A stretch of 64,000 bases of DNA from Chryseolinea sp. (GTDB taxonomy: Bacteria > Bacteroidota > Bacteroidia > Cytophagales > Cyclobacteriaceae): contig JBGTEP010000106.1 in the NCBI GenBank assembly GCA_041747735.1, positions 2,980 to 66,979 of the forward strand, in the 5' to 3' direction. The translations under genes were made by a program, and so were the position numbers. Numbering within the stretch: the first letter of the stretch is position 1; every line of letters begins with the position of its first letter. Shown piece by piece: positions 17,097 to 34,241 of this stretch. The notes under the pieces are model-generated. The model made no database searches and was not told the origin of the DNA. It was given only the letters and a program-made list of their open reading frames with translations.

Positions 17097-17153
17097 TGAC
17101 CGATTGTCTTTTCGCAAGACTAAACTGAAATTAGGTAAATAATACAAGGTTAT

Positions 17154-18509
17154 ATGAACTTCACAAGCATCAACCCATTCAACGGATCCAGGATAGGCAA
17201 TTATAAAAAACATAATGAAGCGGATGTTCTTAGGATAATAAACAAAGCACAGCAAACTTTTGATAGTTGGCGTAAGGTCTCGGTGAAAGAGCGTGCTGCG
17301 CTTATCTCAGCCGTAGGAGATGCCTTGCGGAAAAATACTGAAAAGTATGCGCGGATGATAACGCAGGAGATGGGAAAACCGATTGCGGAATCACGCGCGG
17401 AAATTAAAAAATGCGCCTGGGTATGTGATTATTATTCAGACCATGCCGAAAAATTGCTCGCTGAAGAAACGATAAAGACGGAGGCATCCTGGAGTTTTGT
17501 GAGACATGATGCTATCGGTTGTGTGTTGGCTATAATGCCATGGAATTTTCCTTTCTGGCAAGTATTTAGATTTGCGGCACCCGCACTTGCGGCAGGTAAT
17601 ACTGCCTTGCTAAAGCATGCACCCAATGTGTTTGGCTGCGCTACTTATATTTCCGATGCTTTCCGGGACGCGGGAATTCCCGATGGAGTATTTCAAAATC
17701 TTTTTATTGACACGGATGCTATTGGCGGCGTCATCGCTGACAAATCAGTGAAAGCGGTTACGCTGACAGGTAGCGAACGGGCAGGGTCTGCTGTGGCTGC
17801 CCTTGCTGGCAAACATCTAAAAAAAACTGTATTGGAATTGGGAGGAAGCAACGCATTCATAGTTCTTGAGGACGCGAATATTGCAGACGCCGTACGAATT
17901 GCTGTGACGTCAAGGATGCAGAACGCAGGACAAAGTTGTATTGCTGCAAAACGATTTTTAGTGGTCGAACAAGTATACGATGATTTTGTCGCGGGATTCA
18001 TATCAGAAGTTAAGAAACTGAAGTCAGGGGATCCCATGAATGAAACTACTCAGCTAGGCCCGCTTGCACGCATTGATCTCGCCAATCAACTACAACGGCA
18101 GGTTCAGGAGTCTGTCAAGGCTGGAGCGGAACTCCTCCTCGGAGGCAACCAGCAAGGTTGTTTTTATGAACCCACCGTTCTGGGAAACGTCACTCCGGGA
18201 ATGCCAGCATTTGACGAAGAGACATTTGGTCCGCTTGCACCAATGATCAAAGTGAGAGACGCAGCGGAAGCAATTAAGTTTTCAGAGATGTCTAGATATG
18301 GATTGGGTGTAACCCTCTTCACTCAAAATAAAAACAACGCCATGGCAATGGCTGAAGAGTTCACGGACGGCGCTTGCTTTGTTAATGAACTGGTTAAATC
18401 CGACCCAAGACTACCCTTTGGAGGGACGAAGTCCTCTGGTTATGGGCGAGAATTATCACGCGACGGCATGATGGAATTCGTGAACAGGAAGACGGTGTAC
18501 ATTAAGTAA
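17154..18509 (+). CDS. gabD: NAD(P)-dependent succinate-semialdehyde dehydrogenase
   Basis: MPWNFPFWQ, LKHA, TGSERAG, LELGGS, QSCIA, EETFGP, PFGGTKSSGYGREL. Confidence 0.85.
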   Translation: MNFTSINPFNGSRIGNYKKHNEADVLRIINKAQQTFDSWRKVSVKERAALISAVGDALRKNTEKYARMITQEMGKPIAESRAEIKKCAWVCDYYSDHAEKLLAEETIKTEASWSFVRHDAIGCVLAIMPWNFPFWQVFRFAAPALAAGNTALLKHAPNVFGCATYISDAFRDAGIPDGVFQNLFIDTDAIGGVIADKSVKAVTLTGSERAGSAVAALAGKHLKKTVLELGGSNAFIVLEDANIADAVRIAVTSRMQNAGQSCIAAKRFLVVEQVYDDFVAGFISEVKKLKSGDPMNETTQLGPLARIDLANQLQRQVQESVKAGAELLLGGNQQGCFYEPTVLGNVTPGMPAFDEETFGPLAPMIKVRDAAEAIKFSEMSRYGLGVTLFTQNKNNAMAMAEEFTDGACFVNELVKSDPRLPFGGTKSSGYGRELSRDGMMEFVNRKTVYIK

Positions 18510-18797
18510 TTTAGGTGACGTTTGGAACGCCGGATCGTCAAATTTGTCGGTGTACTTCAAGAACCCCAATCGACTTTACCTCTTGAAACGACTTCGGCGA
18601 AAGTACCTCCGTTGTACGTCTTAGAAGATGCGATGCCAAGGGAGTTCGAAAGAAATTTTACCGAATTATGAACGTCCGGGACTAATAATCGTTGCAGGAA
18701 AATTCAAAATGCCTAAATTCCCGGATTGTACGTAGCATAGGTTTTTGATGAGAATACATCTTTTCCAGCTAATAATACGCACAGTAATTAATACGAC

Positions 18798-20681
18798 ATG
18801 TTTCAAAAAAATAAGAGAATATTAGCTACCCTTTGTTGTCTCTGCCTAACGTGGGAGCTACCTGCGTTTAGCCAGTTCCAAAATCTCCCGATGAATCAAA
18901 TACCCCTCACCGATTTAAGCGCCTTTAAACCCGTTGATGGCAACTGGAAGCTGGTCGAGGATGTGTTTTTTGATCCTCTTAAAAACAAAAAACCGCAGAT
19001 CGACAAAGGCAGTGGCGTATTATTGAACATTCCTTCGGATAGTGAAAAAGATAATTTGTTTACGAACCTTGAACACGGCGATATAGAGCTGGAATTGGAT
19101 TACATGATCGCGAAAGGCTCCAATTCCGGGGTTTATCTACAGGGTCGCTACGAGGTGCAGATTTTTGATTCTTGGGTCAAAGCTAACCCAAATTTTTCGG
19201 ACGCAGGGGGTATCTACCAGCGTTGGAATACTAGCTTGGAAGCCGGAAAGAAAGGTTTTGAAGGACATTCACCTTTGGTAAGCGTAAGCAAAGCACCGGG
19301 CTTATGGCAGCACTATCGGATTATATTTCAGGCACCAAAGTTCAATGCGCAAGGCCAGAAAATTGCCAATGCCCGCTTTTTAAAAGTTTACCACAACGGA
19401 GTACTGGTGCATGATAACGTAGAATTATCCGGTCCCACGCAGTCAGCGGCGTTTGAAGATGAAAAACCGCTAGGGCCACTCATGATTCAGGGCGACCACG
19501 GACCGGTGGCTATCCGGAATATCAAATACAAAATTTTCTCGGACGATGAAGTGAAAGTGAGCAATATACGCTATGCCACCTACGATGGCGCCTTTCAGCA
19601 AATACCTGATTTTACGAAGCTAACTCTACAAAAGGAAGGGGAGAGCGAATACATTCAGCCGGGGATGGGTGCCAATACCAATAATTTCGCAGGACAAATT
19701 ACCGGTACGATAGAGATTCCAAAACGCGGGCAATACCTTCTTGAAATGCAGTATTCGGCTATTGTATCCGATCCGCATTTCGCGAATAACCCCAGTGGTG
19801 GCGGGGATCTAGAAATTGCCGGAAAAAAAATACTGGAGTTAGATCAGCGCGGGAAAGAAACTACAGCTCAGGTCGACTTGCCGGCTGGCTCTCATCCATT
19901 TACAATTCAGTACTACAGCCGTATCCCCAGTGAAAATAAGAGTATCCGATTGTATATAGAAGGAACAGGCACAAGGCGGCAGGCCGTAGGCAGTCCACCG
20001 GTTATTCCGGATCCGGACCCGGCAGGTGTAATAACCTTGGTTGCCAAAAATGAACCGATTGTGCAACGCAGCTTTGTGCAACACAACGAGGAAAAGAAAA
20101 CACATGCAGTTTCGGTAGGAGAGCCAGGCGGAGCAAACTATTCCCTTGATTTAAAAAATGGGGCCTTGTTACAAATTTGGCGCGGGCCTTTTCTTGAAAC
20201 GACACCGATGTGGCACCAGCGTGGCGATGATCAAATAGGCAAACCCCTGGGCAGCATCATCACGCTTTCGGGAGCCCCCTCGCTGGCAGCGCTACCAGAT
20301 AAAAATACTGAATGGCCCGACTCGATGACTACGGCTGCCAATTATAAATTCTTGGGGTATACCCTTGATAAAACCGGCAGACCTACTTTTAGATATACGT
20401 TGGGCAACGCACAGGTGCGAGAACAATTTGTACCGGAAAACGACATGCGGCAACTTAAGCGGCATTTTTCTTTCCAGGGCAGTACCCACAACATGTATTG
20501 TCGGGTAGCTACCGGCAAAATTAAAGAACTAGCAAACGGTCTTTACAGCATTAACGACAAGGAATATTTTATCAGCCTGTATGACACCAAAGTGCAACCA
20601 CTGGTGCGAAACATGGGCAGTGAACAGGAATTGTTACTGCCGGCGGAGAATAATCAAATCAGTTATACTATCATTTGGTAA
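18798..20681 (+). CDS. Secreted DUF1080 (3-keto-disaccharide hydrolase-like) + PA14-like protein
   Basis: Signal peptide; NSGVYLQGRYEVQI, GQW-like GLWQHYRI, NGVLVHDN, QGDHGPVAIRNI. Confidence 0.8.
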   Translation: MFQKNKRILATLCCLCLTWELPAFSQFQNLPMNQIPLTDLSAFKPVDGNWKLVEDVFFDPLKNKKPQIDKGSGVLLNIPSDSEKDNLFTNLEHGDIELELDYMIAKGSNSGVYLQGRYEVQIFDSWVKANPNFSDAGGIYQRWNTSLEAGKKGFEGHSPLVSVSKAPGLWQHYRIIFQAPKFNAQGQKIANARFLKVYHNGVLVHDNVELSGPTQSAAFEDEKPLGPLMIQGDHGPVAIRNIKYKIFSDDEVKVSNIRYATYDGAFQQIPDFTKLTLQKEGESEYIQPGMGANTNNFAGQITGTIEIPKRGQYLLEMQYSAIVSDPHFANNPSGGGDLEIAGKKILELDQRGKETTAQVDLPAGSHPFTIQYYSRIPSENKSIRLYIEGTGTRRQAVGSPPVIPDPDPAGVITLVAKNEPIVQRSFVQHNEEKKTHAVSVGEPGGANYSLDLKNGALLQIWRGPFLETTPMWHQRGDDQIGKPLGSIITLSGAPSLAALPDKNTEWPDSMTTAANYKFLGYTLDKTGRPTFRYTLGNAQVREQFVPENDMRQLKRHFSFQGSTHNMYCRVATGKIKELANGLYSINDKEYFISLYDTKVQPLVRNMGSEQELLLPAENNQISYTIIW

Positions 20682-20691
20682 GGCTCACAAA

Positions 20692-22809
20692 ATGAAAGCG
20701 AAATTTTTATCGATTGAGGCACATATTTCCGATTTGAGATTCCTGTTGCTGGGCTTAGCTTTTCTAAGCTACGTCGCCCACGCGCAAACCTCGCCCACCA
20801 GTAGCAAGCACCATGCCCCAACTCTTCGGGGCCCGGTTGCTCTTTCAGCTGTGCCCGCAAGCGAAGATGATTATTACAAAATTATAACCCTGCCGATTCC
20901 AGAAGGCGTGGTATTGGAAGTGGGTGGTTTGGCGTCCATGCCCGATGGCCGTTTGGCAGTCTCTACCAGACGCGGCGACGTATGGATGATTGGCAACCCT
21001 TATTTAGCTGGCAATGCCGGACCCTCTTACAGACGCTTTGCCTCAGGGTTACACGAACCGTTGGGTCTAGCCTATAATGATGGCGATCTCTATTTATCAC
21101 AGCGCAGCGAAGTAACTCGTTTGCGCGACCGGGATGGTGATAGCCGGGCTGATGATTATGATAATGTATATTCTTGGCCCCTCTCGGGCAACTACCACGA
21201 ATATTCATACGGACCGTTGTTTACCTCCGATGGCGGAATGTTAATAACTCTAAATTTAGCTTGGGTAGGCAAAGGAGCCAGTTTTGCTCCGTGGCGGGGC
21301 TGGATGATTAAAATTATGCCGGATGGCAAAATGCATCCGATTGCTTCTGGCATGCGCTCCCCGGCGGGTTTCGGCATGAACGCTCAGGGCGATGTGTTTT
21401 ACGCCGAAAACCAAGGCGATTGGGTGGGCTCGGGACGGATCACCCACGTAGTGCCGGGAGATTTTGTCGGTAACCCGGAAGGTTTGCGCTGGAGCGGCGA
21501 ACCCAATTCGCCTGTTAAGCTGAAGAAAACCGATATACCCAGTACTGATAATCCGATGTTTGAAGTCGCTAAAAAGATACCCGGTTTAAAACCTCCGGCT
21601 GTCTGGTTTCCGCACGGTCTACTTGGTACTTCTACTTCTGATATTATTACTGACACGACGAAAGGTTCTTTCGGACCATTTGAAGAGCAATTATTTGTTG
21701 GCGATCAGGGTCAAAGCAAGATTACACGGGTGGCATTAGAGAAAATAAACGGTGTGTATCAAGGTGCTGTGTTCCCTTTCCGGGAAGGTTTTATGTCGGG
21801 TATTTTGCGCATGGTGTGGGGCAACGATGGTTCCATGTTTGTTGGTATGACGAGTCGCGGATGGACGTCTACTGGTAAAGAACCGTTTGGTCTGCAGCGC
21901 CTGGTTTGGACCGGTAAAATGCCCTTTGAGATGAAGACGATTCGAGCCCAGCCCGATGGTTTTGAAATTGAATTCACCCGGTCTGTTGATAAAGCTGCGG
22001 CGAGTGACATGGAATCGTATAAAATTACCGGCTTCAATTACAAATACCATCTAGCCTATGGCAGCCCGGTCATCAACCAGGAGCCTTGCCCAATTACGGG
22101 GATAGTTGTCTCGGATGATGGGTTAAAAGTGCGGTTGGTAGTGGATAATCTACGCGAAGGATATATTCACGAGTTGAAGGCCGAAGGTGTTTATTCAACG
22201 GCAAATAATTCACTGTTGCACCCGGTCGGCTACTATACGCTAAACAGTATCCCGATCGGTGAAAAGTTGAATTTGCCTAAAACGGTCATTCCAAAACAAT
22301 CCGACAGTTCGCATACTGCTATAGGGCATAACATTCCGGGACCCAAAAAGCCAGCCCGTAAAAATTTAGTTGTTAAGGGTACCCCAACTGGAAGTATTGC
22401 CAAGCATGTAACTACTCGTCCGGCAAATTGGAGCGACGAGGTCGTAACGATTAATATGGGCACTAAACCCGGCTTAAAGTTCAATCCGGAGCAGTTTCAG
22501 GTAAAAGCCGGCAGCAGGATAAAGGTAGTATTCCATAACAACGATGATATGCTACATAATTTTGTTGTGGTACTACCTGGTACCGCTATTGATGTGGGCG
22601 AGCAAGCCATTAAATTAGGCCTCGATGGTTTAGAATTAAATTATATACCCAACACTGAAAAGGTGCTGCACTACACAACATTGTTGCAGCCGGAGTTGAC
22701 TCAAACAATCTACTTTACGGCTCCGGACAAACCCGGCGATTACACATACGTGTGTACAGTGCCCGGCCATTTTTATGTGATGCAAGGTATTATGAAAGTG
22801 GTGAAGTAA
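20692..22809 (+). CDS. Secreted beta-propeller (sugar/sorbosone dehydrogenase-like) protein with C-terminal auracyanin/azurin-like blue-copper domain
   Basis: Start moved to ATG 20692 (signal peptide; removes the overlap). GLHEPLGL, GMRSPAG, NQGDW; type-1 Cu ligands MLHN...CTVPGHFYVM. Confidence 0.8.
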   Translation: MKAKFLSIEAHISDLRFLLLGLAFLSYVAHAQTSPTSSKHHAPTLRGPVALSAVPASEDDYYKIITLPIPEGVVLEVGGLASMPDGRLAVSTRRGDVWMIGNPYLAGNAGPSYRRFASGLHEPLGLAYNDGDLYLSQRSEVTRLRDRDGDSRADDYDNVYSWPLSGNYHEYSYGPLFTSDGGMLITLNLAWVGKGASFAPWRGWMIKIMPDGKMHPIASGMRSPAGFGMNAQGDVFYAENQGDWVGSGRITHVVPGDFVGNPEGLRWSGEPNSPVKLKKTDIPSTDNPMFEVAKKIPGLKPPAVWFPHGLLGTSTSDIITDTTKGSFGPFEEQLFVGDQGQSKITRVALEKINGVYQGAVFPFREGFMSGILRMVWGNDGSMFVGMTSRGWTSTGKEPFGLQRLVWTGKMPFEMKTIRAQPDGFEIEFTRSVDKAAASDMESYKITGFNYKYHLAYGSPVINQEPCPITGIVVSDDGLKVRLVVDNLREGYIHELKAEGVYSTANNSLLHPVGYYTLNSIPIGEKLNLPKTVIPKQSDSSHTAIGHNIPGPKKPARKNLVVKGTPTGSIAKHVTTRPANWSDEVVTINMGTKPGLKFNPEQFQVKAGSRIKVVFHNNDDMLHNFVVVLPGTAIDVGEQAIKLGLDGLELNYIPNTEKVLHYTTLLQPELTQTIYFTAPDKPGDYTYVCTVPGHFYVMQGIMKVVK

Positions 22810-22974
22810 TTGAAAGGATCCGTTAGCGGCCCCGGTTTAACGATAAGAATGTGGGGGTGAAGTGATTTCGTTTTCTATAATTAATAAGATTCGATGATTC
22901 GTAGATTTATTGTATTGGTGACTTTCTGTATCCCATGCGCCGAACGGTAAAGTGTCTATCGTGTTTGTTGTCCA

Positions 22975-23070
22975 ATGGGAGATTCTTTCTACTTGTGCAA
23001 TGAATTCGGTGAAGTATGGATATCTGATGATAAGCAAGCTTGCGCTCTCATTCTATTTCCCGATACAAAA
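22975..23070 (+). pseudogene. Fragment resembling a Bacteroidetes GNAT acetyltransferase, ending at the att-like repeat
   Basis: Reads MGDSFYLCNEFGEVWISDDKQACALILFPDTK. Recalled family pattern is MDYSFxxCxxFGxVxLSxDxxACALxLxPDKK. Similarity stops after 23070. Confidence 0.45.
23053..23070 (+). repeat. Left 18-bp direct repeat (att core) CTATTTCCCGATACAAAA
   Basis: 18/18 identical to 30941-30958, the last 18 nt of mnmE; flanking bases differ on both sides. Confidence 0.9.
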
Positions 23071-23109
23071 TGTGTTCAATACAGAATGTCAATACGTTAG
23101 GTGGGTCGC

Positions 23110-23129
23110 GCAACGAACTAGCAACAAAA
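23110..23129 (+). repeat. Left arm-type-like site GCAACGAACTAGCAACAAAA
   Basis: 19/20 match to 30806-30825, same orientation, 40 bp inside the left core. Confidence 0.75.
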
Positions 23130-23361
23130 AATACCTAAGCATCGGTAACAAACCCTAACTATGCCGAAAGATGTTTTTAGGTGTTCATTGCTTTGACAAA
23201 GGTAGATAATGTCGAGTAGATCATCAAGAAATAGAAACAAGATCAACATTGAAACAACGTGATCGTGCTATTGCTAATTGCAGTTTCGTATCGGTCCAGT
23301 ACTCGCAAGAGGATGTCTTTTGCGAGCTGCAATGCGTTGAACTTCTGTATTAAGCAGCTTC

Positions 23362-24258
23362 TCAATTCATTTGCTTCTTTAGAAACGCCATGACTTTAGT
23401 CCTCACCTCATCCGCATCGAACATCTCACCGAAGTGAGGCGCATCTTTAACAAGAACAAGTTCACTTTTCACTCCGACAACATTCAACCATGAATTCAGT
23501 AGCTGCGAATGTTTGTTTGAAACGATATCGTCTTTTTCGCCATGAATAATCAGGAATGGCGGATCATTTTTGTCGACATACGTAACGGGACTCGCTGCCT
23601 TTGCAAGATCAGGACGAGAAAGGGGAGTGGCACCGATCAAAAGACTTTCGGGAGATTTTGGATCATTGGCTCCAGGGAATAATACTAGTTCTGCGGGACC
23701 ATAGAAATCAATTACAGCTTTGAACGCGAACGATTTATTTGTCCCCGTCATGAAAAAGTTCTCTACGTTATTATTTTTTGACAAACCCGTCAATGATGCT
23801 AGGTGCCCGCCAGCCGAAAAGCCCATGACGGCAATTCGTTTTTTGTCGAGCCCGTATTTATCTGCATTGTCAACCAGAAAAGAAATTGCGCGATTGCAGT
23901 CTTGTATCTGTGCAGGAAAAGTTGCTTGCGTTGCAAACCGGTAATCGATAGAGGCGAGTGCAAAACCACTGCTTACTATTTCCGCCACTGTTTTTCTCAT
24001 GTAACCAATATCAGCATACTTATCATTGCCTAACCAGCCACCTCCATGTATGAAGATGACCAGTGGTACTTTACCCTTTGCGTTTGGTGGAAGGTAAATG
24101 TCAAGCAAGTGTTTAGTTAGTGTATCATTGTTGTACCCTATGTTTCCATGTAAAGTGGTGCCCTTGGGAAATATATCCATGACAGGGTTGGTTTGAGAAA
24201 ACCCAAACGTGGAGATCAATATCAGGGAGAGAAGAATGAGGATAATTTGATGTTGCAT
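23362..24258 (-). CDS. Secreted alpha/beta hydrolase (esterase/lipase, BD-FAE-like)
   Basis: HGGGW, GFSAGG nucleophile, HGEKDDIV, APH. Confidence 0.9.
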   Translation of the reverse strand: MQHQIILILLSLILISTFGFSQTNPVMDIFPKGTTLHGNIGYNNDTLTKHLLDIYLPPNAKGKVPLVIFIHGGGWLGNDKYADIGYMRKTVAEIVSSGFALASIDYRFATQATFPAQIQDCNRAISFLVDNADKYGLDKKRIAVMGFSAGGHLASLTGLSKNNNVENFFMTGTNKSFAFKAVIDFYGPAELVLFPGANDPKSPESLLIGATPLSRPDLAKAASPVTYVDKNDPPFLIIHGEKDDIVSNKHSQLLNSWLNVVGVKSELVLVKDAPHFGEMFDADEVRTKVMAFLKKQMN

Positions 24259-24305
24259 ATTTGTTAAGATGTTGAAGTAGGTTAAATAATATATGGTTAA
24301 GGAGT

Positions 24306-24713
24306 TTACCTGGCTATATTGACTTGATATTGCTCATCACTTACTTTCTCCATCCAATCCACAACTTTCCCATTCAGCTCTTCTTGCGTAGCGATATGCG
24401 TCATTGCCATTGTTGGCGATGCTCCATGCCAATGCTTTTCACCTGGAGCAATCCAGACAATATCACCTGGCCTGATTTCTTCTATGGCGCCACCTTCAGT
24501 TTGCGCTAATCCTACCCCTGACAATACAATCAGGGTTTGGCCCAAAGGATGCGTGTGCCACGCGGTTCTTGCTCCAGCTTCAAAAGTTACTTCGGCTGCA
24601 CCAGCGCGCCTGTGTCCGTTTGGTTGAAATAAGTAGTTAATGCGAACGGAACCAGTAAACCAATCGTCCGGACCCTTGACTGATGGTTGAGAACCTAATT
24701 TGATAATTTCCAT
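24306..24713 (-). CDS. Cupin domain protein
   Basis: [14 protein letters not shown]...EKHWHGA. Confidence 0.9.
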
Positions 24714-24719
24714 TTCGTT

Positions 24720-25217
24720 CTAGTTGTTGGATTTATACTGCTCGTCTGTAACAGGCTCCAACCAGGTTACAATTCCATTTTCTGTCTTTGGCAATATATA
24801 CAATTGAGTTAGACTACTGTTTTCAGTTGCTCCGTGCCAGTGCCTTGTATTTGCCGGACATTTGATGACGTCACCCTTTTTCATCGTTTGCCTTGGCTGT
24901 CCCTCCAGTTGATGATATCCTTCACCATCTAATACAATCAGAATTTGCCCACTCGGGTGGACGTGCCAGTTTGATCGCGCGCTTTTTTCAAAATACACGT
25001 TGCCAACTAGTGTATTATAAATGGAGTCGTTTGGTACAAGACCAAAGTTGTAGGCGTTACCTGTGAAGTTTGTTGTAGGCCCAGGTTCGCCCTTCGGAAA
25101 AATTGTTTCATCAGAAGTACCCGATTCTGATTGTTGACTTTTGCCTTTATCATTGCAGCTAATCAGCGTGACCAGCAATAACAAGACAGTGATGGAATTA
25201 AAATGCGTGTGTTTCAT
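24720..25217 (-). CDS. Cupin domain lipoprotein
   Basis: Lipobox LISC; ARSNWHVHPSGQIL...HWHGA. Confidence 0.85.
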   Translation of the reverse strand: MKHTHFNSITVLLLLVTLISCNDKGKSQQSESGTSDETIFPKGEPGPTTNFTGNAYNFGLVPNDSIYNTLVGNVYFEKSARSNWHVHPSGQILIVLDGEGYHQLEGQPRQTMKKGDVIKCPANTRHWHGATENSSLTQLYILPKTENGIVTWLEPVTDEQYKSNN

Positions 25218-25232
25218 TGTTGAGTTTTAAGT

Positions 25233-25733
25233 TTATTTTTTTCTGAGCAACTCAAACGTCATCGTCACGTTACCAGAACCTACTGCCTGTGAAAGGCCGC
25301 TCGGGTTTTCTATTTTGCCGAGCCTTGCGTAACTATACGATGTGTTAAAAGTCTTATAAAACAATACCAGCGTGTTCGAACCCCAGAGCATCAAATCTCC
25401 TGAGTTGATGATTCGAGGGCTAGAGGCATTAGCCGGTAGGCTATTGGAAAAATCGAAAAATTTCTCATCGCTGTTGAGATCCTTCATGTTGACTGTTAGC
25501 GGTAGCATTTTTTTAAATTCTGTTGCTGCAGCGTTTGATTCAAGTATTGCAGTAAAATGAGCGTTGCCAATGATTATCTCAATTGTATCCTTCATAAGTT
25601 CTGAAGTTTTGGGTGCAGAATCTGGAACATTTTTTTCAAGCAACGCGGCTTCTTCGGTCGTGCACGTGGCCGAAACTATCAAAGGCAAGATGAATATAAT
25701 GATACTTGCGGATAACTTCATGATCTTGATCAT
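25233..25733 (-). CDS. Cyclophilin-like fold protein with export signal
   Basis: NAAATEFKKMLPLTVNMKDLN..EK, GDLMLWGSNTLVLFY. Confidence 0.85.
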   Translation of the reverse strand: MIKIMKLSASIIIFILPLIVSATCTTEEAALLEKNVPDSAPKTSELMKDTIEIIIGNAHFTAILESNAAATEFKKMLPLTVNMKDLNSDEKFFDFSNSLPANASSPRIINSGDLMLWGSNTLVLFYKTFNTSYSYARLGKIENPSGLSQAVGSGNVTMTFELLRKK

Positions 25734-25794
25734 TTCAATCTTTCGTTAATGTTGAATCCTGTTACGACATCGTCTGAGTTGTGCTTTGCTTATT

Positions 25795-26547
25795 TTATAG
25801 TTCCTGGGATGTAGGACGGAAGATAATTTCATTGACATCGACATCTTCCGGTTGACTGATGGCGAACGCGACCACACGTGCGAAACTATCTGGACTGATT
25901 CCGACAGCTCCCACGTAGTCTTTGTTAGCTTGCTGGATGTCTGCCTCAGTAATATGTTCCAGCAATTCGGTCTTAACTGCTCCGGGACAAACTATAGTGG
26001 TACGAATATTATAAGGCTTCACTTCCATCCGTAAGCCTTCAGTCAATGCCCGCACTGCAAATTTGGTAGCTGAATAAACTGCAGAGCCATTAAATATTTT
26101 GTGACCTGCTACTGAGGATGTGTTGATAATCTGACCTGATTTCTGCTCTTTCATGTAAGGCAGAGCTGCGGCAATTCCATTGAGCACTCCTTTGATATTA
26201 ACATCGATCATTGTATCCCACTCATCAACATTCAGCCTGTCCATTGGTGACAATGGCATGATGCCCGCGTTATTAATAATCACGTCAACGCGCCCAAATT
26301 GTTTAACAGCTGAGTCGACAAGATTCTTTACCTGATCCCGCTGCGTTACATCCGCAGCGATGGCAAGCGCTTTTCCACCTTTGTCACGAATCTCCTTGGC
26401 GAGCTTTTCAATTCTGTCAGCTCTTCTTGCGCCCAGTACTACTGTTGCACCAAGCTGTGACAGATGTTTTGCAGCAGCTTCGCCCATACCACTACTTGCG
26501 CCTGTAATTACAATTACTTTACCTTTTATATTATTTCCCATTTCCAT
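25795..26547 (-). CDS. SDR-family oxidoreductase
   Basis: [17 protein letters not shown]. Confidence 0.95.
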
Positions 26548-26598
26548 ATCTATTTTTACTAGTATTATTTATTTGCTACTCAAAAACACTCGAACGGA

Positions 26599-27708
26599 CT
26601 ATCGACGTTCTTCCACTACCACAGTCTTTTTTGCCGACACATCATTTAAGTTAGCCTTGAAGAATTCCTCGAGCTTTTGGAAAGGGATGATCTCTACTTT
26701 GTCATACAGATCAACATGAACTGCTTTAGGAATGATAACCAACTCTTTTGGTTCCGCTGCTGCCTTGTATGCGTCTTCGCTGAAGTAACGTGAATGAGCA
26801 TTTTCGCCAGCGATGATCAAGACGGGACGCGGAGAGATTTCTTTGATGTACGTGAGGAGCGGCATATTCATGAATGACCACGGATTGGTTGCAGTCCAGG
26901 AACTATTTGAATTGATAGAACGGGGATGAAACCCACGCGGTGTTTTGTAATAGTTAAAGTAGTCGACTACAAATTGCGGCTCATTACCAGTTAGCTTCTC
27001 GGGTAGATTGCTGGAGCTGGCGGCATACGATTCATTCTCGGCATCTTTCCAACGTTGCTCTCCAAGCTGCTCAAGGGTTTGGGTACGTTGCTCTGGTGTA
27101 AGCGCATCGTAGTATCCATTCGCCATTACGCGACTCATATTGTACATGCTGGTGACCGCCACTGCTTTTACCCGTTTGTCTACTGCAGCAGCATTCAATC
27201 CCATCCCGGCAAATCCACAAATACCGATAATACCGATCCGGCTTCTATCAATGTTCTTTTGCAGTCCAAGAAAGTCAACTGCTGCACTGAAATCTTCCGT
27301 ATTGATATCAGGTGATGCGACATTTCGTGGTTCGCCACCGCTTTCGCCTGTGTACGAAGGATCAAACGCAAGTGCGGCAAAACCTCGCTCGGCCATATTT
27401 TGCGCATAGAGTCCTGAAGATTGCTCCTTAACTGCGCCAAACGGCCCACTAATGGCAAGAGCTGCCAAAGATTTTCCTCCGGCATTTTTAGGAAGATATA
27501 AATCTCCGGCCAAAGAAATTCCATAACGGTTTTTAAAAGTTACTTTTTGGCGAGTGACCTTGTCGCTTAGTTTGAAAGTATACCGTTCTCCTTGATTTTC
27601 CTTATTCATAGTTTCCTTCTTTTGGTTTGAAACTGCGCTCTGATTTTGTGAATGGGCTTGTCCTATAATAAGTAGTGACAAAGCCGCTAAAATGGCTGTT
27701 GCTTTCAT
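26599..27708 (-). CDS. Secreted alpha/beta hydrolase (YcjY/dienelactone-hydrolase-like, Cys nucleophile)
   Basis: GPFGAVKEQ, FDPSYTGESGG, GICGFAG, HVDLYD. Confidence 0.9.
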   Translation of the reverse strand: MKATAILAALSLLIIGQAHSQNQSAVSNQKKETMNKENQGERYTFKLSDKVTRQKVTFKNRYGISLAGDLYLPKNAGGKSLAALAISGPFGAVKEQSSGLYAQNMAERGFAALAFDPSYTGESGGEPRNVASPDINTEDFSAAVDFLGLQKNIDRSRIGIIGICGFAGMGLNAAAVDKRVKAVAVTSMYNMSRVMANGYYDALTPEQRTQTLEQLGEQRWKDAENESYAASSSNLPEKLTGNEPQFVVDYFNYYKTPRGFHPRSINSNSSWTATNPWSFMNMPLLTYIKEISPRPVLIIAGENAHSRYFSEDAYKAAAEPKELVIIPKAVHVDLYDKVEIIPFQKLEEFFKANLNDVSAKKTVVVEERR

Positions 27709-27734
27709 GTTCTTTTTGATTTGATTTACTTATA

Positions 27735-27801
27735 CAAAGTTGGCGTGGTTGGGGCGCTTTTGGTTAAAGAAAATCAAACCAATCATTAAGATTTTCAAAC
27801 C
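27735..27801 (-). promoter_or_regulatory. Putative -7 element (CAACTTTG on minus strand) with a TCAAACC direct repeat at 21-bp spacing
   Basis: TCAAACC at 27774-27780 and 27795-27801; lies between the operon and the divergent AraC gene. Confidence 0.4.
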
Positions 27802-28150
27802 TATTTAGCCATCAGCTTATTAATATTGTGTGATAATGAGCAAAAAAAGCCGGTTTTATGGATTACAGAGTATTGTCGCAATACTCTCGCTTGCATTTTT
27901 CCGCATGATGACGGACCATCACAAGACTGAAAACATAGGTCACGCGAATTTCATTAGTTTGATAATCTTAATATAAAGATTGAATTTCTTACCTTCCGAT
28001 TGTGTTAAAATCAAGAGATTTGTGCTCTACAATTAAAGTAACGTGCAAATGATTTTTAGAGCGATAAAAAAGGCATTTGAATGGATCTGCAAGCAGGAGT
28101 CGTTTCCAGATTTTCAGAAATGAAATTGATACTCAATTAAAGGCATTGTT

Positions 28151-29028
28151 ATGGAGAAAGGTAATGAACGATCAGTCTCGACTTTTAACAGCGAGCTTAA
28201 GCTTAAAGGCTTTAACGCCTTCCAGATTGAAGACGACTCGAATGGTGTCAGAGAGTATAGTCGAAAAGATTTTATAAGATCTGCCTAACGACTGGAGAAA
28301 GTATTATTAACTACGCTGATCGGAGCTACGCAATGAAGGGCACGATCCTGTTCTTTGCTAATCCCAATGTTCCCTATTCATGGGAGACAATTTCTAGGAG
28401 TTACGTGGGTTATACGTGTTTGTTTTCTGAAGATTTTTATAAACCTTCAGACCGTACTGAAAGTTTGCAGCATTCATCACTCTTCAAAATTGGAGGAACA
28501 CCAATCTTCCAGATTTCTGAGGCGAAGCTTGAATTTTTGAATGGAATCTTTCGAAACATGATCACAGAACAAAGTACCAGCTATGCGTTCAAAGATGATC
28601 TGATTCGAAACTATGTGAATCTGATAATACATGAAGCTTTGAAACTTCAGCCAGCTCAGGATTTTGACCAGGTCAGGAATGCCTCACATAGGATCACAAA
28701 TGTTTTCCTTGAGCTACTGGAAAGACAATTCCCGATCGAGGGTAAAGATCGTCCACTTCTACTACGCACTGCGCAGGACTATGCCAGTAATTTGAATTTG
28801 CATGTCAACTACCTGAACAGAGCCGTTAAGGAAACAACAGGGAAATCGACAACAACGCATATCAGTGAGCGTATTGCAAGTGAAGCCAAAGCATTGCTTC
28901 TGCATACGGATTGGAATGTAGCGGACATTGCTTATGCGCTTGGGTTCGAGTATCCGACATATTTCAATAACTTTTTCAAACGAATTACAGGAACAAATCC
29001 AATGTCACTAAGGCCTGCTGAGGTATAG
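28151..29028 (+). pseudogene. AraC-family regulator with a 1-nt deletion frameshift at T4 28270-28273
   Basis: Frame from ATG 28151 reads ...YSRKDF then stops; the shifted frame reads YKICLTTGESIINYADRSYA into ORF 28333..29028. One extra T restores SRKDFYKICL and a 292-aa protein. Confidence 0.85.
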
Positions 29029-29047
29029 GAGATCAACTCGAGTAACC

Positions 29048-29617
29048 ATGTCAACCAAGACTGATATTTTTCAAAAGATGCTTGCTGGCGGTATCATCAG
29101 GAGTGATGAAATGGGCGAAGCGTGGGAAATTGTTTTCCGTGCGCAACGATTATCGCGTGCTCTTAATGCCTCAACTACAATCGATGAGATTAGAGAACGT
29201 TTGAGCGAGATCATCGATAGCCCAATTGACAAGAGTACAACCGTCTTTGTTCCGTTCTATACAAACTTTGGCAAGCATATTAAGCTCGGTAAAAATGTCT
29301 TCATCAATCATGCATGCAGCTTCCTGGACCTTGGCGGAATTACAATTGAAGATGATGTGCAGATTGGCCCTCGGGTAAATCTGGTAACAGAAAATCACCC
29401 GTTAGATCCGGCAACGAGAAAGCATCTTGACTTAAAGCCAATTGTTATTAAGCGAAACGCATGGATAGGAGCGGGCGCTACGATTCTTCCGGGTGTTACC
29501 GTAGGAGAGAACTCAATTGTTGCAGCAGGAGCGGTGGTGAACAAAAATGTTCCTGACAATAGTATTGTCGCGGGAATTCCAGCCAAACTTATCAAGGTTA
29601 TCGAGTCGCATCATTAA
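29048..29617 (+). CDS. Hexapeptide-repeat sugar O-acetyltransferase (maltose/galactoside type)
   Basis: FYTNFGKHIKLGKNVFIN, AWIGAGATILPGVTVGENSIVAAGAVV. Confidence 0.9.
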   Translation: MSTKTDIFQKMLAGGIIRSDEMGEAWEIVFRAQRLSRALNASTTIDEIRERLSEIIDSPIDKSTTVFVPFYTNFGKHIKLGKNVFINHACSFLDLGGITIEDDVQIGPRVNLVTENHPLDPATRKHLDLKPIVIKRNAWIGAGATILPGVTVGENSIVAAGAVVNKNVPDNSIVAGIPAKLIKVIESHH

Positions 29618-29789
29618 TCCTAAGTGAAGCTAGCGTATTGATGGCTTCGATTTTGAGCTTGTCATTCATATGAGTATATCGGTCTGTCGAGACAACGTAC
29701 CTATTCTCTAACGAAATTTCCTTGATATCAAACCCTAAATCCCTTAGAAAGGGCAAAAGTATTTTGCTACTTATTTCTTCTTCGCTCAT
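29598..29789 (-). pseudogene. Chimeric scar: HsdR N-terminal-like start fused to a tyrosine-integrase-like C-terminus
   Basis: MSEEEISSKILLPFLRDLGFDIKEISLE (HSDR_N-like) joined to STDRYTHMNDKLKIEAINTL (integrase catalytic-Tyr-like RYTH). Confidence 0.5.
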
Positions 29790-29824
29790 TCAGTTAGGGG
29801 TTAGTTAAGGGCACATCTATTGAT

Positions 29825-30280
29825 CTATATTAACCTGTCATCCAAAGTAATTGGCCTGCTATCACCGATTTTTACGTGACTAAAGTCCGGATGTTCTGGG
29901 TTAAGGAGAATATTATAATCCGGAGACGTCACTGAAGGGACGAGAACCGCAAGGGAAGATAAACCTTGCAGCCACATTGTTCCCCATCGTTGAACAGTCT
30001 CAAAGTATCCCTTCTTGTTCCAATTCTCAGGGAGGTCTTTTGTTTCGACTTTTACGATACTTTTATCTGGAACATCAATCGTAAGGAGGACCATATCCGG
30101 TGGTTTTACAGCACTTGGCAGATGCACGAGACACTCAAGAATAGCTAATGAGATATTGCTGGAGGCGTAGAGAATGGGATTCTTACCAGCTTGGTGCAAG
30201 CGACCAGAAACCAAGGTTGAGCCGATTCCACTTATATCGTTAGTATATTTTGCTTTTTGAATGCGATAGACAAGCATCAA
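29825..30280 (-). CDS. RES-domain toxin
   Basis: VYRI, LYAS..SLAILE, VPSV; 4-nt overlap with the antitoxin. Confidence 0.9.
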   Translation of the reverse strand: MMLVYRIQKAKYTNDISGIGSTLVSGRLHQAGKNPILYASSNISLAILECLVHLPSAVKPPDMVLLTIDVPDKSIVKVETKDLPENWNKKGYFETVQRWGTMWLQGLSSLAVLVPSVTSPDYNILLNPEHPDFSHVKIGDSRPITLDDRLI

Positions 30281-30696
30281 TAAATACCATATTCAATTCT
30301 TAACAACTCCTCCTTAACCAGCTCAATACCTAAACTTGACGATAGCATATGAACAGGTGTTTCATTGTTGAGCGATGGGATAAGCGAATTGAGCCAGGAA
30401 ACGAATGCCTTTTCATCATTATCAAAAGCGTTAAGACCAAGTTGAAATAACTCTGCAAGCTTCAAAACATTTTCTGACGCGGCATTGGTAATAGGAGTTG
30501 TATTTTTCTGTCGTTGGTAAGTCCTAACGGATACACCAATTAACTCAGCGGTTTCTTTCTGCTGCAATCCGAGCTTAAATGAAATGTGCGCAACATGCTT
30601 TTTCTTTAACGGGCGCTCTTTAATCACATGATAAAGACGCTGTCTTGAATCGACATTTCTTAAGCTCGCTTCTCCTAAATGTTCCAGAAATTTCAT
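30277..30696 (-). CDS. Xre/MbcA/ParS-type antitoxin
   Basis: HTH AELIGVSVRTYQR; C-terminal WLNSLIPSLNNETP...GIELVKEELLRIEYG. Confidence 0.9.
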   Translation of the reverse strand: MKFLEHLGEASLRNVDSRQRLYHVIKERPLKKKHVAHISFKLGLQQKETAELIGVSVRTYQRQKNTTPITNAASENVLKLAELFQLGLNAFDNDEKAFVSWLNSLIPSLNNETPVHMLSSSLGIELVKEELLRIEYGIY

Positions 30697-30707
30697 CCTA
30701 ATTTATG

Positions 30708-30725
30708 ATACGTCATTTGACGTAT
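30708..30725. promoter_or_regulatory. Palindrome ATACGTCA-TT-TGACGTAT, candidate TA operator
   Basis: Perfect 8-bp arms, about 12 bp upstream of the antitoxin ATG. Confidence 0.6.
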
Positions 30726-30768
30726 TAAGTTACGACATTTTGTGAATTGAATACCTAAATGAACCTAA

Positions 30769-30829
30769 ATACTTTTGTTGCTCATTTAGGGATGATTAGG
30801 TTTGAGCAACAAACTAGCAACAAAAGTAT
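30769..30829. repeat. Right-end arm-like repeats: GCAACAAACTAGCAACAAAA (30806-30825) plus a 14-bp inverted pair (30769-30782/30816-30829)
   Basis: Read directly; matches the left-end site 23110-23129. Confidence 0.75.
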
Positions 30830-30940
30830 GTTGATAATTAAGGTTTTTATTTTGTAAATATCTGTAAATGAGTGTGTTACCTTATAAAGCACATTTTGTC
30901 ACAAATTTCTATGCTTCTGATTATCAATGAGTTAAATCGG

Positions 30941-30958
30941 CTATTTCCCGATACAAAA
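30941..30958 (+). repeat. Right 18-bp direct repeat (att core), equal to the mnmE 3' end
   Basis: Reverse complement TTTTGTATCGGGAAATAG encodes FCIGK*. Confidence 0.9.
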
Positions 30959-32308
30959 CTTCGAGAAAATATTATCCAACAAATCATCCGTAGTGATTGT
31001 GCCCGTGATCTCGCCAAGGTAGTGCAACGATTGCCGAATATCCATCGCTAAAAAATCGCCGGTTATACCAGTGTCCATTCCATGTAATACTCGCTCCAAG
31101 GCATCGTTGGTTTGAATAAGATTCTGATAATGCCTTAGGTTCGTCACCATTACATCGCCTGAGGTAACAGTCTTAACCTGAAAGGTGGAAAGGATTTTGT
31201 CTTTGAGTTCTGTGATGTTGGTTTTGTTGGAAGCGCTTATGAAAATGAAATCATGTCCTTTTAAAACGGTGACGAGCTTTGGATCTGCTTTGTCAACTTT
31301 GTTTCCAGCTTTGATGTAGGGGATACCCAGCTGAATTAAGTTCTGTTCTTCTGTCGCGATTTCATCAAGAGTGGTTTGTGTGAGGTCAAACAGGTAGATA
31401 ATGAGGGAGGCCTTTTTCATTTTGTCACGTGTTCGCTCGACACCCATGGCTTCAACAACATCCTGTGTTTCTCGCAAGCCTGCAGTATCGGTAAAACGGA
31501 AGTTGATACCCCCGAGTACCATCTCATCTTCAATTACATCACGGGTAGTTCCGGGAATGTCGGAGACAATGGCCCTTTCTTCGTTGAGCAGTGTATTCAG
31601 CAACGTTGATTTTCCAGCATTCGGTTTCCCGGCTATAACGGTTGGTATACCGTTTTTGATAACATTACCCTGATCGAATGATGCAATCAATGATAGCAGG
31701 TATGTTTGGATCTTATGAATCAGTTTTTTCAGGTCATCGCGCTGCGCGAATTCTACATCTTCTTCTCCAAAATCCAACTCCAGTTCGATGAGGGATGCAA
31801 AGTGGATCAGTTCTTCGCGAAGCTGGTTAATTTCTTTTGAAAAACCACCGCGCATCTGATTTAGTGCAGCTTGTCGGGCATTGTCAGTTTCTGCGTGAAT
31901 CAGGTCGGCAACAGCTTCGGCTTGTGCGAGGTCAAAACGACCGCTAAGAAATGCTCGTTTTGTGAACTCACCCGGTTCTGCCAGTCTGGCGCCGTTCTTT
32001 AATAAAACTTTGATAATCTCTTTTACAATTATCGGTGAACCGTGGCAAGAGATTTCTGTGCTGTTTTCCGTGGTGAAAGAGTGCGGCTCGAGAAAGACAG
32101 CAACCAGCACTTCATCAATTATCTTTTCGCCATCGCGTAACGTACCAAAGTGAATGGTATGCGACGGCTGTTCTGTTAAATTCTTACCTCTGAAACATGC
32201 CTGAGTAATAGTAATCGCATCCTTACCCGACAAACGGATGACGGCAATAGCCGAAATTCCCTGGGCAGTAGCTGGTGCAACAATAGTTTCTTCCTGTGGT
32301 ATAGACAT
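30941..32308 (-). CDS. mnmE: tRNA uridine-5-carboxymethylaminomethyl(34) synthesis GTPase MnmE/TrmE
   Basis: Likely start MSIPQEETI at 32308; GKPNAGKS, GTTRD, DTAG, NKVD, FCIGK. Confidence 0.97.
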   Translation of the reverse strand: MSIPQEETIVAPATAQGISAIAVIRLSGKDAITITQACFRGKNLTEQPSHTIHFGTLRDGEKIIDEVLVAVFLEPHSFTTENSTEISCHGSPIIVKEIIKVLLKNGARLAEPGEFTKRAFLSGRFDLAQAEAVADLIHAETDNARQAALNQMRGGFSKEINQLREELIHFASLIELELDFGEEDVEFAQRDDLKKLIHKIQTYLLSLIASFDQGNVIKNGIPTVIAGKPNAGKSTLLNTLLNEERAIVSDIPGTTRDVIEDEMVLGGINFRFTDTAGLRETQDVVEAMGVERTRDKMKKASLIIYLFDLTQTTLDEIATEEQNLIQLGIPYIKAGNKVDKADPKLVTVLKGHDFIFISASNKTNITELKDKILSTFQVKTVTSGDVMVTNLRHYQNLIQTNDALERVLHGMDTGITGDFLAMDIRQSLHYLGEITGTITTDDLLDNIFSKFCIGK

Positions 32309-32345
32309 AGGGTGCAAGATACTGGCTTGTGGTAAAAGTCCAACG

Positions 32346-34241
32346 CTACTTCTCGCGAACAATCAACACCGGAATTTTTACTCTGTGCCGCACGGTATCG
32401 ACTGTAGTACCGAAGATCAAATCCTTAAAGAATTTATGTCCGTGAGCCCCCATAACCAAAAGATCGGCATTAAAATTTTTTACCATTTTCGGAATCTCAC
32501 GTTGTGGATTTCCATATTCGATTTTGATTTCCACTTCATATCCCATTGCTGTAAGTTGATTCTTATAATTTTCCAGCGAGACCGTGTCTTTACTGGATTC
32601 GTGATCGGCGATTTCGCTTCCATAAACCATGGCTCCGGCGGTTTCAACAACATGAAGCAGAATATAGCGTGCCTGGGTACCGCCCTGCGCCAGCGCACTT
32701 TGAATCGTAAGTGTATCGATGGCGCTAAAGTCGATCGTTATGGCAATTTGTTTATAAACCGGGCTATGGGAAATATCTAACGTTACCGCAGTACCATGTG
32801 GAATCTTAGCGTCGCGTTCAGCGCTGCGCTTATCAAGCAAGGGTTTGAACGTGATATACAACAGGAAAAGACCGGCTGCTGCGCACACGGGGATTACCGT
32901 TACCCAGAGCACCCAGGCGTTTTCGCCTGCCACTATAAGCCAGCCGCTGACTTCTTCCTGAACAAGTTTTACGTTGAGGGAAACGATAATGGCGGCGATC
33001 AGCCAGGCTAAAAACTTTACCCATGGCTTGATGGCAAAGACACCCATTTTTACTTTGTCGCTGGTAAAGTGTATCAAAGGGATAACTGCAAATCCCAATT
33101 GTAAACTTAAAACCACCTGACTGAAGATCAGCATAGTTCCGGTTTCCGATTCACCATAGATAAGGATGACCAGCACTGCAGGTATGATGGCGATGAGTCG
33201 GGTGATTATACGACGTAACCATGGTGCTATGCGCAAATTCAGATAACCCTCCATTACGATCTGTCCAGCCAGCGTTCCTGTGATCGTTGAACTTTGTCCC
33301 GCTGCTACTAACGCTACACCAAAAAGGATAGGGGCCAGTTCAGTACCTAAAAGCGTTGCCAGAAATTTATGAGCGTCCTGAATATCGGCAACTTCGTGCA
33401 TCCCTGCTTTAAAAAATGTCGACGCGGCTAAAACCAGTATGGCTGCATTTACAAAAAAGGCGGCATTGAGGGCAATGGCTGAATCGATAAAGTTATATTT
33501 GATGGCGGACCAGATACCTTTTTCTGACTGGTTTATCCTCCGTGTCTGGACGAGGGAAGAGTGAAGGTATAAGTTGTGAGGCATTACCGTTGCTCCAATG
33601 ATTCCGATGGCGATATAAAGAGCCCCATCACCTGGCAGCGACGGTACAAATCCTTTTACTAGTTCACTCATATCAGGCTTAGCCAAAACCATTTCGACGA
33701 CAAATGCTCCTCCTATGATGGCAACCAGCGCGATGATAAATGCTTCCATCTTGCGCATGCCATAGCTCTGAAGCAAAAGCAGAAGCAGGGTATCTAATAC
33801 AGTCAGACTAACACCCCAGATTAACGGCAACCCGAAGAGTAGTTGCAACCCTATGGCCATACCCAATACTTCAGCCAGGTCACAGGCAGCAATGGCAATC
33901 TCGGCTAGAACCCAAAGAAAGAAGTTCACCGGACGGCTATAGGTGCTTCGCGAGGCTTGAGCAAGATCCAATTGGCGAACGACGCCGAGGCGGGCACTCA
34001 GACTCTGAAGTAACAACGCCATCAGGTTGGACATTAAGAGTACCCAGATGAGCGCATAGCCAAACTTACTTCCACCCGCAATATCTGTTGCCCAGTTACC
34101 GGGATCCATGTACCCCACACTTACGAGGTACGCCGGGCCCATGAAAGCAACAACTTTACGCCATCCTTTCCGGTTGGAAGCATCAATCGATGCATTGACT
34201 TCACTCAGCGATTTGCGCTGACCTCTGTTTTCATTTCCCAT
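32346..34241 (-). CDS. mntH: Nramp Mn2+ transporter with C-terminal universal stress protein domain
   Basis: YMDPGNW, MPHNLYLHS; C-terminal ADLLVMGAHGH...FGTTV USP motif. Confidence 0.93.
   Translation of the reverse strand: MGNENRGQRKSLSEVNASIDASNRKGWRKVVAFMGPAYLVSVGYMDPGNWATDIAGGSKFGYALIWVLLMSNLMALLLQSLSARLGVVRQLDLAQASRSTYSRPVNFFLWVLAEIAIAACDLAEVLGMAIGLQLLFGLPLIWGVSLTVLDTLLLLLLQSYGMRKMEAFIIALVAIIGGAFVVEMVLAKPDMSELVKGFVPSLPGDGALYIAIGIIGATVMPHNLYLHSSLVQTRRINQSEKGIWSAIKYNFIDSAIALNAAFFVNAAILVLAASTFFKAGMHEVADIQDAHKFLATLLGTELAPILFGVALVAAGQSSTITGTLAGQIVMEGYLNLRIAPWLRRIITRLIAIIPAVLVILIYGESETGTMLIFSQVVLSLQLGFAVIPLIHFTSDKVKMGVFAIKPWVKFLAWLIAAIIVSLNVKLVQEEVSGWLIVAGENAWVLWVTVIPVCAAAGLFLLYITFKPLLDKRSAERDAKIPHGTAVTLDISHSPVYKQIAITIDFSAIDTLTIQSALAQGGTQARYILLHVVETAGAMVYGSEIADHESSKDTVSLENYKNQLTAMGYEVEIKIEYGNPQREIPKMVKNFNADLLVMGAHGHKFFKDLIFGTTVDTVRHRVKIPVLIVREK

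Follow-up and report, generated by a model that had tools for sequence, protein, structure and literature searches.

A probable integrase-less integrative island at the 3' end of mnmE in Chryseolinea and its relation to a Bacteroidota family of mnmE-end elements

Does an exact 18-bp repeat, one copy of which forms the very end of the tRNA modification GTPase gene mnmE, mark the borders of a mobile element, and if so, of what kind and in what state? The question is raised by a 64,000-nt stretch of the genome of Chryseolinea sp. (contig JBGTEP010000106.1), referred to here as the window, the positions of which serve as coordinates unless another contig is named. A sequence-only reading of this DNA had seen an island without an intact integrase at 23053-30958 and had attributed it to a Bacteroidetes element family that would use the same 18-bp site as the SGI1-type elements of Gammaproteobacteria. 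The follow-up presented here largely supports this interpretation: the region, a 7.9-kb block, is very probably a defective integrative island that lacks an integrase, resembles a cis-mobilizable element (CIME), and occupies an attachment site at the end of mnmE. For comparison, 40 Chryseolinea genomes (G-numbers) were searched, and the mnmE loci of the window and of 14 other species, 15 in total, were compared.

The sequence CTATTTCCCGATACAAAA is present exactly, on the plus strand, at 23053-23070 and at 30941-30958. In reverse complement, the right copy is TTTTGTATCGGGAAATAG; on the minus strand, TTT TGT ATC GGG AAA TAG reads F-C-I-G-K-stop and constitutes the last 18 nt of mnmE (15 coding nucleotides, or five codons, plus the TAG stop). 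Both the repeat and its identity with the gene end had been noticed earlier and are confirmed. A third copy does not occur elsewhere in the window, even when two mismatches are allowed, and shuffled versions of the window gave a mean of 0.01 matches at that tolerance. Many copies genome-wide would have spoken against the earlier reading; in the entire genome (6.2 Mb, 213 contigs), the only exact copies are the two at the island ends. The nearest other site, located on contig C21 and carrying two mismatches, has neither arms nor element features; it was rejected as a third att copy and is considered unrelated. Sequence identity between the surroundings of the two copies ends precisely at both edges of the 18-mer, so that the last 18 nt of mnmE are directly repeated at both ends of the island.

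Inside the repeat copies lie two arms, a distal one (arm A) and a proximal one (P arm), with a 20-mer that occurs in the genome only at the two ends of the island (Table 1). The proximal 20-mer sits 116 nt past the mnmE stop and is followed by the inverted GCAACAAAA. An identical 20-mer is located 107 nt past the mnmE stop in G002 and G010, directly before a pair of excisionase-like (xis) and integrase (int) genes: beyond it, a 119-aa protein with Zn-ribbon and HTH_17 domains is encoded, and then a 381-aa tyrosine integrase. At the other end, 60-170 nt inside the left repeat are kept beside the distal repeat in G022, G018, G011, G016, and G001. Arm A together with the core was detected in 21 of the 40 genomes; a single genome may hold as many as 10 copies, and these often lie on the same strand of one contig. 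Alignment of 27 distinct copies of arm A from relatives revealed a common layout of a TAnnTTTG box, a hairpin followed by a run of T, the repeat TTTTGTTGCTAGTTTGTTGC, a spacer of ~40 nt, and the core. Sub-families can be distinguished by matching changes in all three copies of the site, which reads GTTGC, GTTAC (G012 and G011), or GTACC (G008 and G005). Because of these matching changes, and because the integrase of the family contains an Arm-DNA-bind_5 domain, the TTTGTTGC repeats on each arm are read as predicted arm-type binding sites of the integrase at the att junctions. Both arms of the window island carry them, and both predicted att junctions, each with a core and arm-type sites, survive in it. 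The window copy has in common with the relatives both the arm-type site of its proximal end and a distal arm of ~170 nt, which bears out its earlier assignment to the family.

Some further features of the arms are recorded here. In arm A of the window (23150-23230), a Bacteroidetes-type promoter-like pair, TTG ... TAnnTTTG, is present on the minus strand, with its box at 23197-23204. The hairpin, at 23153-23181, shows compensatory variants among the 27 copies and precedes the T run. Pair and hairpin could be the source of a very short transcript or could be an insulating terminator. The sequence directly past the mnmE stop resembles the 29 nt that follow the distal repeat in G003 and was for a time regarded as native flank; this idea was abandoned, as a toxin-antitoxin (TA) unit in G005 is accompanied by the same proximal arm.

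Is there, then, a family of elements in Bacteroidota that makes use of this site? One genome per species was scanned with an alignment of two mnmE-adjacent integrases, by which 373 relatives were found. Among the best 80 of these 373 loci, mnmE ends 150-620 nt upstream and in the same orientation in 75, the other five being loci without upstream sequence; the proposed targeting of the mnmE 3' end by a Bacteroidetes family is well founded in this respect. The hosts belong to the Cytophagales, Flavobacteriales, Sphingobacteriales, Chitinophagales, Bacteroidales, Saprospirales, and Ignavibacteria and include Flavobacterium, Winogradskyella, Pedobacter, Mucilaginibacter, Chitinophagaceae, and Saprospiraceae. 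In all of those loci with a readable gene end, mnmE terminates in FCIGK-stop, and it is this invariance that makes the gene end a dependable target. The integrases of the family combine the domains Arm-DNA-bind_5, SAM_5, and Phage_integrase, while the excisionase-like protein has a Zn-ribbon and HTH_17. The elements would carry their own mnmE end, and integration would restore the gene and leave an 18-nt direct repeat. In those relatives that were examined, the 6 kb downstream of int showed no mobilization gene. The literature on elements at this mnmE site concerns the SGI1-type elements of Gammaproteobacteria only, with none for Bacteroidota, and a description of the Bacteroidota mnmE-end family was not found in the searchable literature.

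Full elements of the family also encode another HTH_17 protein, and one of them (locus L074) has a gene for an AbiEii-type toxin among its cargo. Directly after the 381-aa integrase, full elements (L074, L076, L078, and L079: 7150-8035) encode a second tyrosine recombinase, which is shorter (279-296 aa); in L074 it has SAM_5 and the catalytic domain and no arm-binding domain according to Pfam. A small reverse-strand open reading frame (ORF) after the second recombinase looks excisionase-like by eye, its copy in L074 being without a Pfam family. The cargo ORFs of L076 and L079 look like metal-handling genes, by eye only.

In the window island itself, none of the ten ORFs between the repeat copies contains an integrase domain (Pfam). 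A remnant of the C-terminus of an integrase is left inside a 63-aa ORF between the RES toxin and acetyltransferase genes. It aligns with residues ~328-377 of the 381 residues of the G002 integrase, the region of the catalytic Tyr with the KIEAIN tail (E = 0.014), with the tail of an integrase pseudogene in G011 (61% identity, E = 1e-7), and with an integrase stub in an array of G045 (60% identity, E = 3e-5). The presence of this remnant between the two genes means that an integrase gene was once present. The xis gene and the first ~85% of int are gone and ~50 C-terminal codons remain, in agreement with the claim that an intact integrase had been lost. An autonomous member would have its own integrase (Arm-DNA-bind_5, SAM_5, and catalytic domain) and an xis-like gene beside mnmE; with an int stub only and no xis, the window island is a defective derivative.

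Elsewhere in the genome, no cognate integrase was detected at E<=1e-30, the best matches being other Bacteroidota-type integrases with 30-32% partial identity. The island is therefore stranded unless helped in trans, which is what the sequence-only reading had anticipated. Intact close homologues of the integrase are present within the genus only in G002 and G045, and most genomes with arm A have no cognate integrase. These two integrases (G045:C149:21529-22668 and G002:C24:21953-23095) are 97% identical, far above the 76-89% identity of the genus mnmE proteins, a range that refers to comparison with the window's protein and not to G002 versus G045 directly. This difference suggests that the active element of G002 and G045 has spread horizontally in recent times.

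Comparison of the 15 mnmE loci shows how often the gene end is occupied in Chryseolinea. Nine of them, among which is the window, have one to three more copies of the mnmE end in direct orientation 2-17 kb downstream; all of these still read FCIGK-stop (TTYTGYATYGGNAANTRR), and several often follow each other in series. The remaining six loci are on contigs that end within a few kb, and there an xis-like gene and/or an integrase follows directly after mnmE. On the 5' side of mnmE, synteny of the Nramp-Usp gene holds for every same-genus relative amenable to examination. Downstream of mnmE in the 14 other species, neither the genes of the island nor those of the window's left flank were found. 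As the 5' side is conserved and the 3' side is not, synteny breaks exactly at the mnmE stop, and the relatives do not carry 23071-30940 syntenically, as they would if it were core sequence. Same-strand arrays with up to five arm-A/core junctions over 46 kb are present in G045:C99, G054:C25, G018:C264, and G042:C60 and C174; their cores are decayed to various degrees, and only one integrase stub was seen in them.

A few loci deviate. The mnmE gene of G022 (L054, G022:C41) misses its normal last codon and stop and reads on for ~35 codons (...FFIKAKIC*); the proximal junction of the arm-A island in this genome seems to have been deleted into the mnmE end. The G017 assembly, 98% complete, gave no mnmE match at E<=1e-50, perhaps because the hot spot divides the gene between contigs. 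Assemblies of G002, G010, G008, G021, G005, and G012 often break 0.6-4.5 kb downstream of mnmE, which fits the presence of repeated element sequence there.

Outside the left repeat, the sequence-only reading was right about the repeat copy itself and is corrected with respect to its surroundings: the copy is not embedded in anonymous DNA but forms the end of the 5' part of a GNAT acetyltransferase gene, which is frameshifted and reads towards the repeat. Intact homologues were found in G017, G043 (two copies), G054, G050, and G005. A DNA profile of these six (nhmmer) aligns to 22956-23072, so the GNAT homology runs through the 18-mer and ends 2 nt past it. The 18-mer is identical at 14 of 18 positions to the GNAT homologues compared, a level of matching reached by only 136 of ~12.4 million genome positions. 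The GNAT consensus at the position of the core, CTATTYCCNGATAAGAAA, is identical to the core at ~16 of 18 positions, the two differing ones being on the arm-A side. The 3' half of the GNAT gene was not found anywhere in the assembly, and GNAT is not a neighbour of the 742-aa gene in relatives. To judge from these alignments, what lies outside the left repeat is pseudogenized GNAT sequence and not the native flank of mnmE. The left flank at large (15000-23052) has a GC content of 45.9%, ~3 standard deviations above the genome mean for windows of such size; its genes include those for cupredoxin-containing dehydrogenase-like and 3-keto-disaccharide hydrolase domain proteins, and no marks of mobile elements were seen in it.

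The contents of the island fall into two blocks with separate counterparts in relatives. Next to mnmE, overlapping by 4 nt, are genes for a RES toxin and an Xre antitoxin; both members of this adjacent pair score above the curated family cut-offs, and they are a predicted ParST-type type II TA system. The stretch of core, P arm, Xre, and RES (29821-30956) is 73.5% identical at the nucleotide level to a unit in G005, in which arm A and core follow after 78 nt, giving a complete TA-only unit of 1.35 kb. Leftward of 29633, the cargo block (acetyltransferase, AraC regulator, hydrolase, cupins) has counterparts in arrays of G009 and G042 that are 75-77% identical over long blocks; for the cargo operon, nucleotide identity is 69-82% to G009 (69-77% over long blocks) and 77% to G042. 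In G009, the cargo block starts 45 nt after the core, without TA genes or a proximal arm, and an arm-A island of G011 still has an integrase pseudogene in front. The window island is probably a fusion of two such modules.

Homologues of the AraC regulator are present in the arm-A islands of G022 (54% amino acid identity) and G011 (41%). In the window, this gene has a 1-nt frameshift in a T run at ~28270-28288, by which its N-terminal ~45 codons and the 231-aa remainder are in different frames; this may be a homopolymer assembly error, since the Logan contig with the same state comes from the same run. Neither tRNA genes, Rfam families, nor notable terminators were found in the region, and a promoter and terminator scan did not rise above shuffles.

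Table 1 Features of the mnmE-end island and its borders in the 64,000-nt window
Feature	Coordinates	Strand	Details
mnmE, tRNA modification GTPase, target gene	30941..32362	-	455/473 aa
Proximal direct repeat (attL core)	30941..30958	-	end of mnmE, FCIGK*
Proximal arm (P arm)	30697..30940	-	20-mer GCAACAAACTAGCAACAAAA at 30806-30825; inverted TTTTGTTGC at 30773-30781
Xre/ParS-type antitoxin, 139 aa	30277..30696	-	Pfam Xre_MbcA_ParS_C; NCBIfam Xre_ParS_antitoxin 95.7 bits vs cut-off 90
RES/ParT-type toxin, 151 aa	29825..30280	-	Pfam RES; NCBIfam 140.1 bits vs cut-off 110
Integrase C-terminus remnant	29607..29750	-	inside 63-aa ORF 29598-29789, between RES and acetyltransferase genes
Hexapeptide-repeat O-acetyltransferase (maltose/galactoside acetyltransferase-like), cargo	29048..29617	+	homologous block in G009, G042
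AraC-family regulator, cargo, frameshifted	28151..29028	+	intact ORF only 28333-29028
Cargo operon, six genes	23362..27708	-	
Alpha/beta hydrolase	26599-27708	-	
SDR oxidoreductase	25795-26547	-	
Cyclophilin-like protein	25233-25733	-	
Cupin	24720-25217	-	
Cupin	24306-24713	-	
BD-FAE esterase	23362-24258	-	
Distal arm (arm A)	23071..~23234	-	20-mer GCAACGAACTAGCAACAAAA at 23110-23129
Distal direct repeat (attR core)	23053..23070	-	identical to mnmE end
GNAT acetyltransferase 5' fragment, frameshifted pseudogene	22880..23072	+	abuts and includes distal repeat

How might this structure have come about? The ancestors would have been elements of the Bacteroidota mnmE-end family equipped with xis and a tyrosine integrase gene. 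A TA unit may have fused with an int-bearing cargo element, or one may have partially replaced the other. The event would have cost the island xis and most of int, with the RES/Xre pair taking their place. Movement would now be possible only if an integrase of the GTTGC type, of the kind present in G002 or G045, were provided in trans, as might happen when a related element inserts in tandem; meanwhile, the TA pair may help to keep the island. At some time after integration, recombination between the distal core and the core-like sequence in a downstream GNAT gene could have deleted the native flank together with the 3' part of GNAT. This deletion may have been brought about by the integrase, in line with the documented use of a secondary site by SGI1 (PMC2297512), or by a 12-nt microhomology.

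A number of observations weigh against such an origin. The best match of the family profile in the whole window is the integrase remnant, albeit with a weak E of 0.35; its matches to the two Chryseolinea remnants are clear. The mnmE site is empty in none of the 15 genus loci, all of which are occupied; the comparison with an empty site that the earlier reading had asked for thus gave none, and the ancestral flank was not seen. Foreign composition, likewise put forward as a check, is not evident: the GC content of the island is 41.8% as compared to 41.5 +/- 1.4% for the genome, and its tetranucleotide distance is at the 84th percentile. The island blocks are 73-77% identical between species, and mnmE and Nramp 71-72% identical to those of G005 and G009; as the blocks are only slightly more similar than core genes, the window copy may be old, inherited vertically and without recent movement. 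This exact mnmE is present on just one further public contig (Logan, run SRR28170462), which is 100% identical to the window. Finally, the order of TA fusion, integrase loss, and GNAT deletion is one that we infer. The noncoding arm A, on the other hand, reaches 77-86% identity with its counterparts from G005, G009, and G022, and conservation of the arms above that of the essential mnmE gene would fit functional constraint or later exchange.

The lack of compositional anomaly would also agree with another explanation, namely that the repeat is due to chance, or the region to ordinary core DNA, aided by the natural likeness of a native GNAT gene to the mnmE end. The left copy is indeed largely native GNAT sequence with its 14 of 18 matches to homologues, and an 18-nt repeat in some 64-kb window is not rare when many windows are scanned. 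The edge of the repeat coincides exactly with the mnmE stop, however, GNAT homology stops at the repeat, an integrase stub is present inside the island, and the ~170 nt by the left copy and the 20-mer by the right copy are conserved element ends beside mnmE-end copies in 21 genomes; in view of these conserved arms, this explanation was rejected and we give it almost no credence. The same GNAT sequence could be accounted for in another way, by integration of an element at a secondary, core-like site in GNAT and a later rearrangement, e.g., recombination with a second element at mnmE, that joined the two loci. The junction is located exactly in the core-like sequence, and for SGI1 both tandem arrays and the use of a secondary site are known (PMC2297512). 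Two elements and a deletion would be needed for this, whereas a single deletion from the distal att site to the pseudo-site gives the same structure, and both the 3' part of GNAT and a second arm pair are absent from the whole genome; such a course of events is improbable.

A more far-reaching alternative holds that the locus is an integron-like capture platform, at which cassettes that never had an integrase of their own are excised, re-inserted, and shuffled in trans by a single integrase resident beside mnmE. Chromosomal integrons typically include TA cassettes, and both arms are present in the 1.35-kb TA-only unit of G005. Array units past the first position almost never hold an integrase, homologous units occupy different array positions in different species, and conservation of the arms exceeds that of core coding genes, a fact that would reflect ongoing use if this explanation were true. 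Chryseolinea, and Bacteroidota generally, would then possess a functional analogue of the integron with a lambda-type att system as its basis. Nevertheless, decay of elements that once had int can be seen directly in the C-terminal int stubs of the window island and of one G045 unit and in the int pseudogenes of G010 and G011. Moreover, the units comprise several genes, with a regulator and promoters of their own, attC-like hairpin sites and an IntI-type integrase are missing, and most arm-A genomes are without a cognate integrase. We therefore regard the capture platform as rather unlikely, and the defective integrative island as the explanation to be preferred.

Among known systems, this island most resembles the CIMEs, which are bounded by att sites and have lost their recombination module; examples are CIME19258 and CIME302 at the 3' end of fda in Streptococcus thermophilus. 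CIMEs have been reviewed together with integrative and mobilizable elements (PMC5704250). Common to both are the attL and attR borders without recombination or transfer genes, the derivation by deletion from an int-bearing element, and the location at the 3' end of a housekeeping gene; by analogy, movement would be expected only when a related element integrates alongside. The tandem arrays in relatives are compatible with composite mobilization of the CIME type, without showing it. The window island differs from CIMEs in phylum, target gene, and integrase family, and in that a TA pair replaces the lost module.

Elements such as NBU1, NBU2, and Tn4555 of Bacteroides have an arm-binding tyrosine integrase, insert at the 3' end of conserved genes, and encode small recombination-directionality proteins; the NBU elements target tRNA genes. 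The mnmE-end family shares with NBU1, NBU2, and Tn4555 the integrase type with an arm-binding domain, integration at a gene 3' end, a short segment of identity, and small accessory proteins. Its target, in contrast, is mnmE rather than a tRNA gene, and the window copy lacks an integrase. With chromosomal integrons, the arrays in relatives have in common serial same-strand units, a conserved recombination site in each, one integrase position, and TA modules. They lack IntI, attI, and attC, and NCBIfam models of integron integrases scored far below their cut-offs; the units are multi-gene, their arms of ~170 nt contain lambda-like arm-type sites, and int stubs show decay.

In Gammaproteobacteria, SGI1, PGI1, AGI1, and MGIVchHai6 target the last 18 bp of trmE, which is the same gene as mnmE and thdF, and are flanked by an 18-bp repeat (PMC9035990, PMC6531882, PMC7449626, PMC2297512). 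The window island is integrated in precisely these last 18 bp; as in SGI1, the target would be restored by the element's own copy and an 18-bp direct repeat is formed, and tandem arrays and a secondary site are documented for SGI1. Unlike in SGI1, the integrase of the relatives is of a Bacteroidota type (Arm-DNA-bind_5 plus SAM_5), a resistance integron is absent from the window island, and the host is a soil member of the Cytophagales. The SGI1 backbone (Int/Xis, mpsAB/oriT, traN/G/H, AcaCD control) was not encountered and no Pfam match to a relaxase, conjugation, or replication family was obtained among the ten island ORFs, the backbone genes not having been searched for by name. The choice of the same target looks convergent, because the FCIGK-stop end of mnmE is invariant.

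In conclusion, the window island alone is an ordinary decayed mobile element, and its value lies in the family that it exposes. The landing site to which SGI1-type resistance islands owe their success in Gammaproteobacteria also serves, across Bacteroidota, a tyrosine integrase of another type. The surviving attL and attR, with xis and int provided in trans, make a tractable test system, and the mnmE end combined with the arm motifs is a simple genomic marker for islands of accessory genes in environmental Bacteroidota. None of the Chryseolinea genomes examined (15 loci) has the site free, and in this genus it gathers serial, mostly int-less units with metabolic, regulatory, and TA functions.

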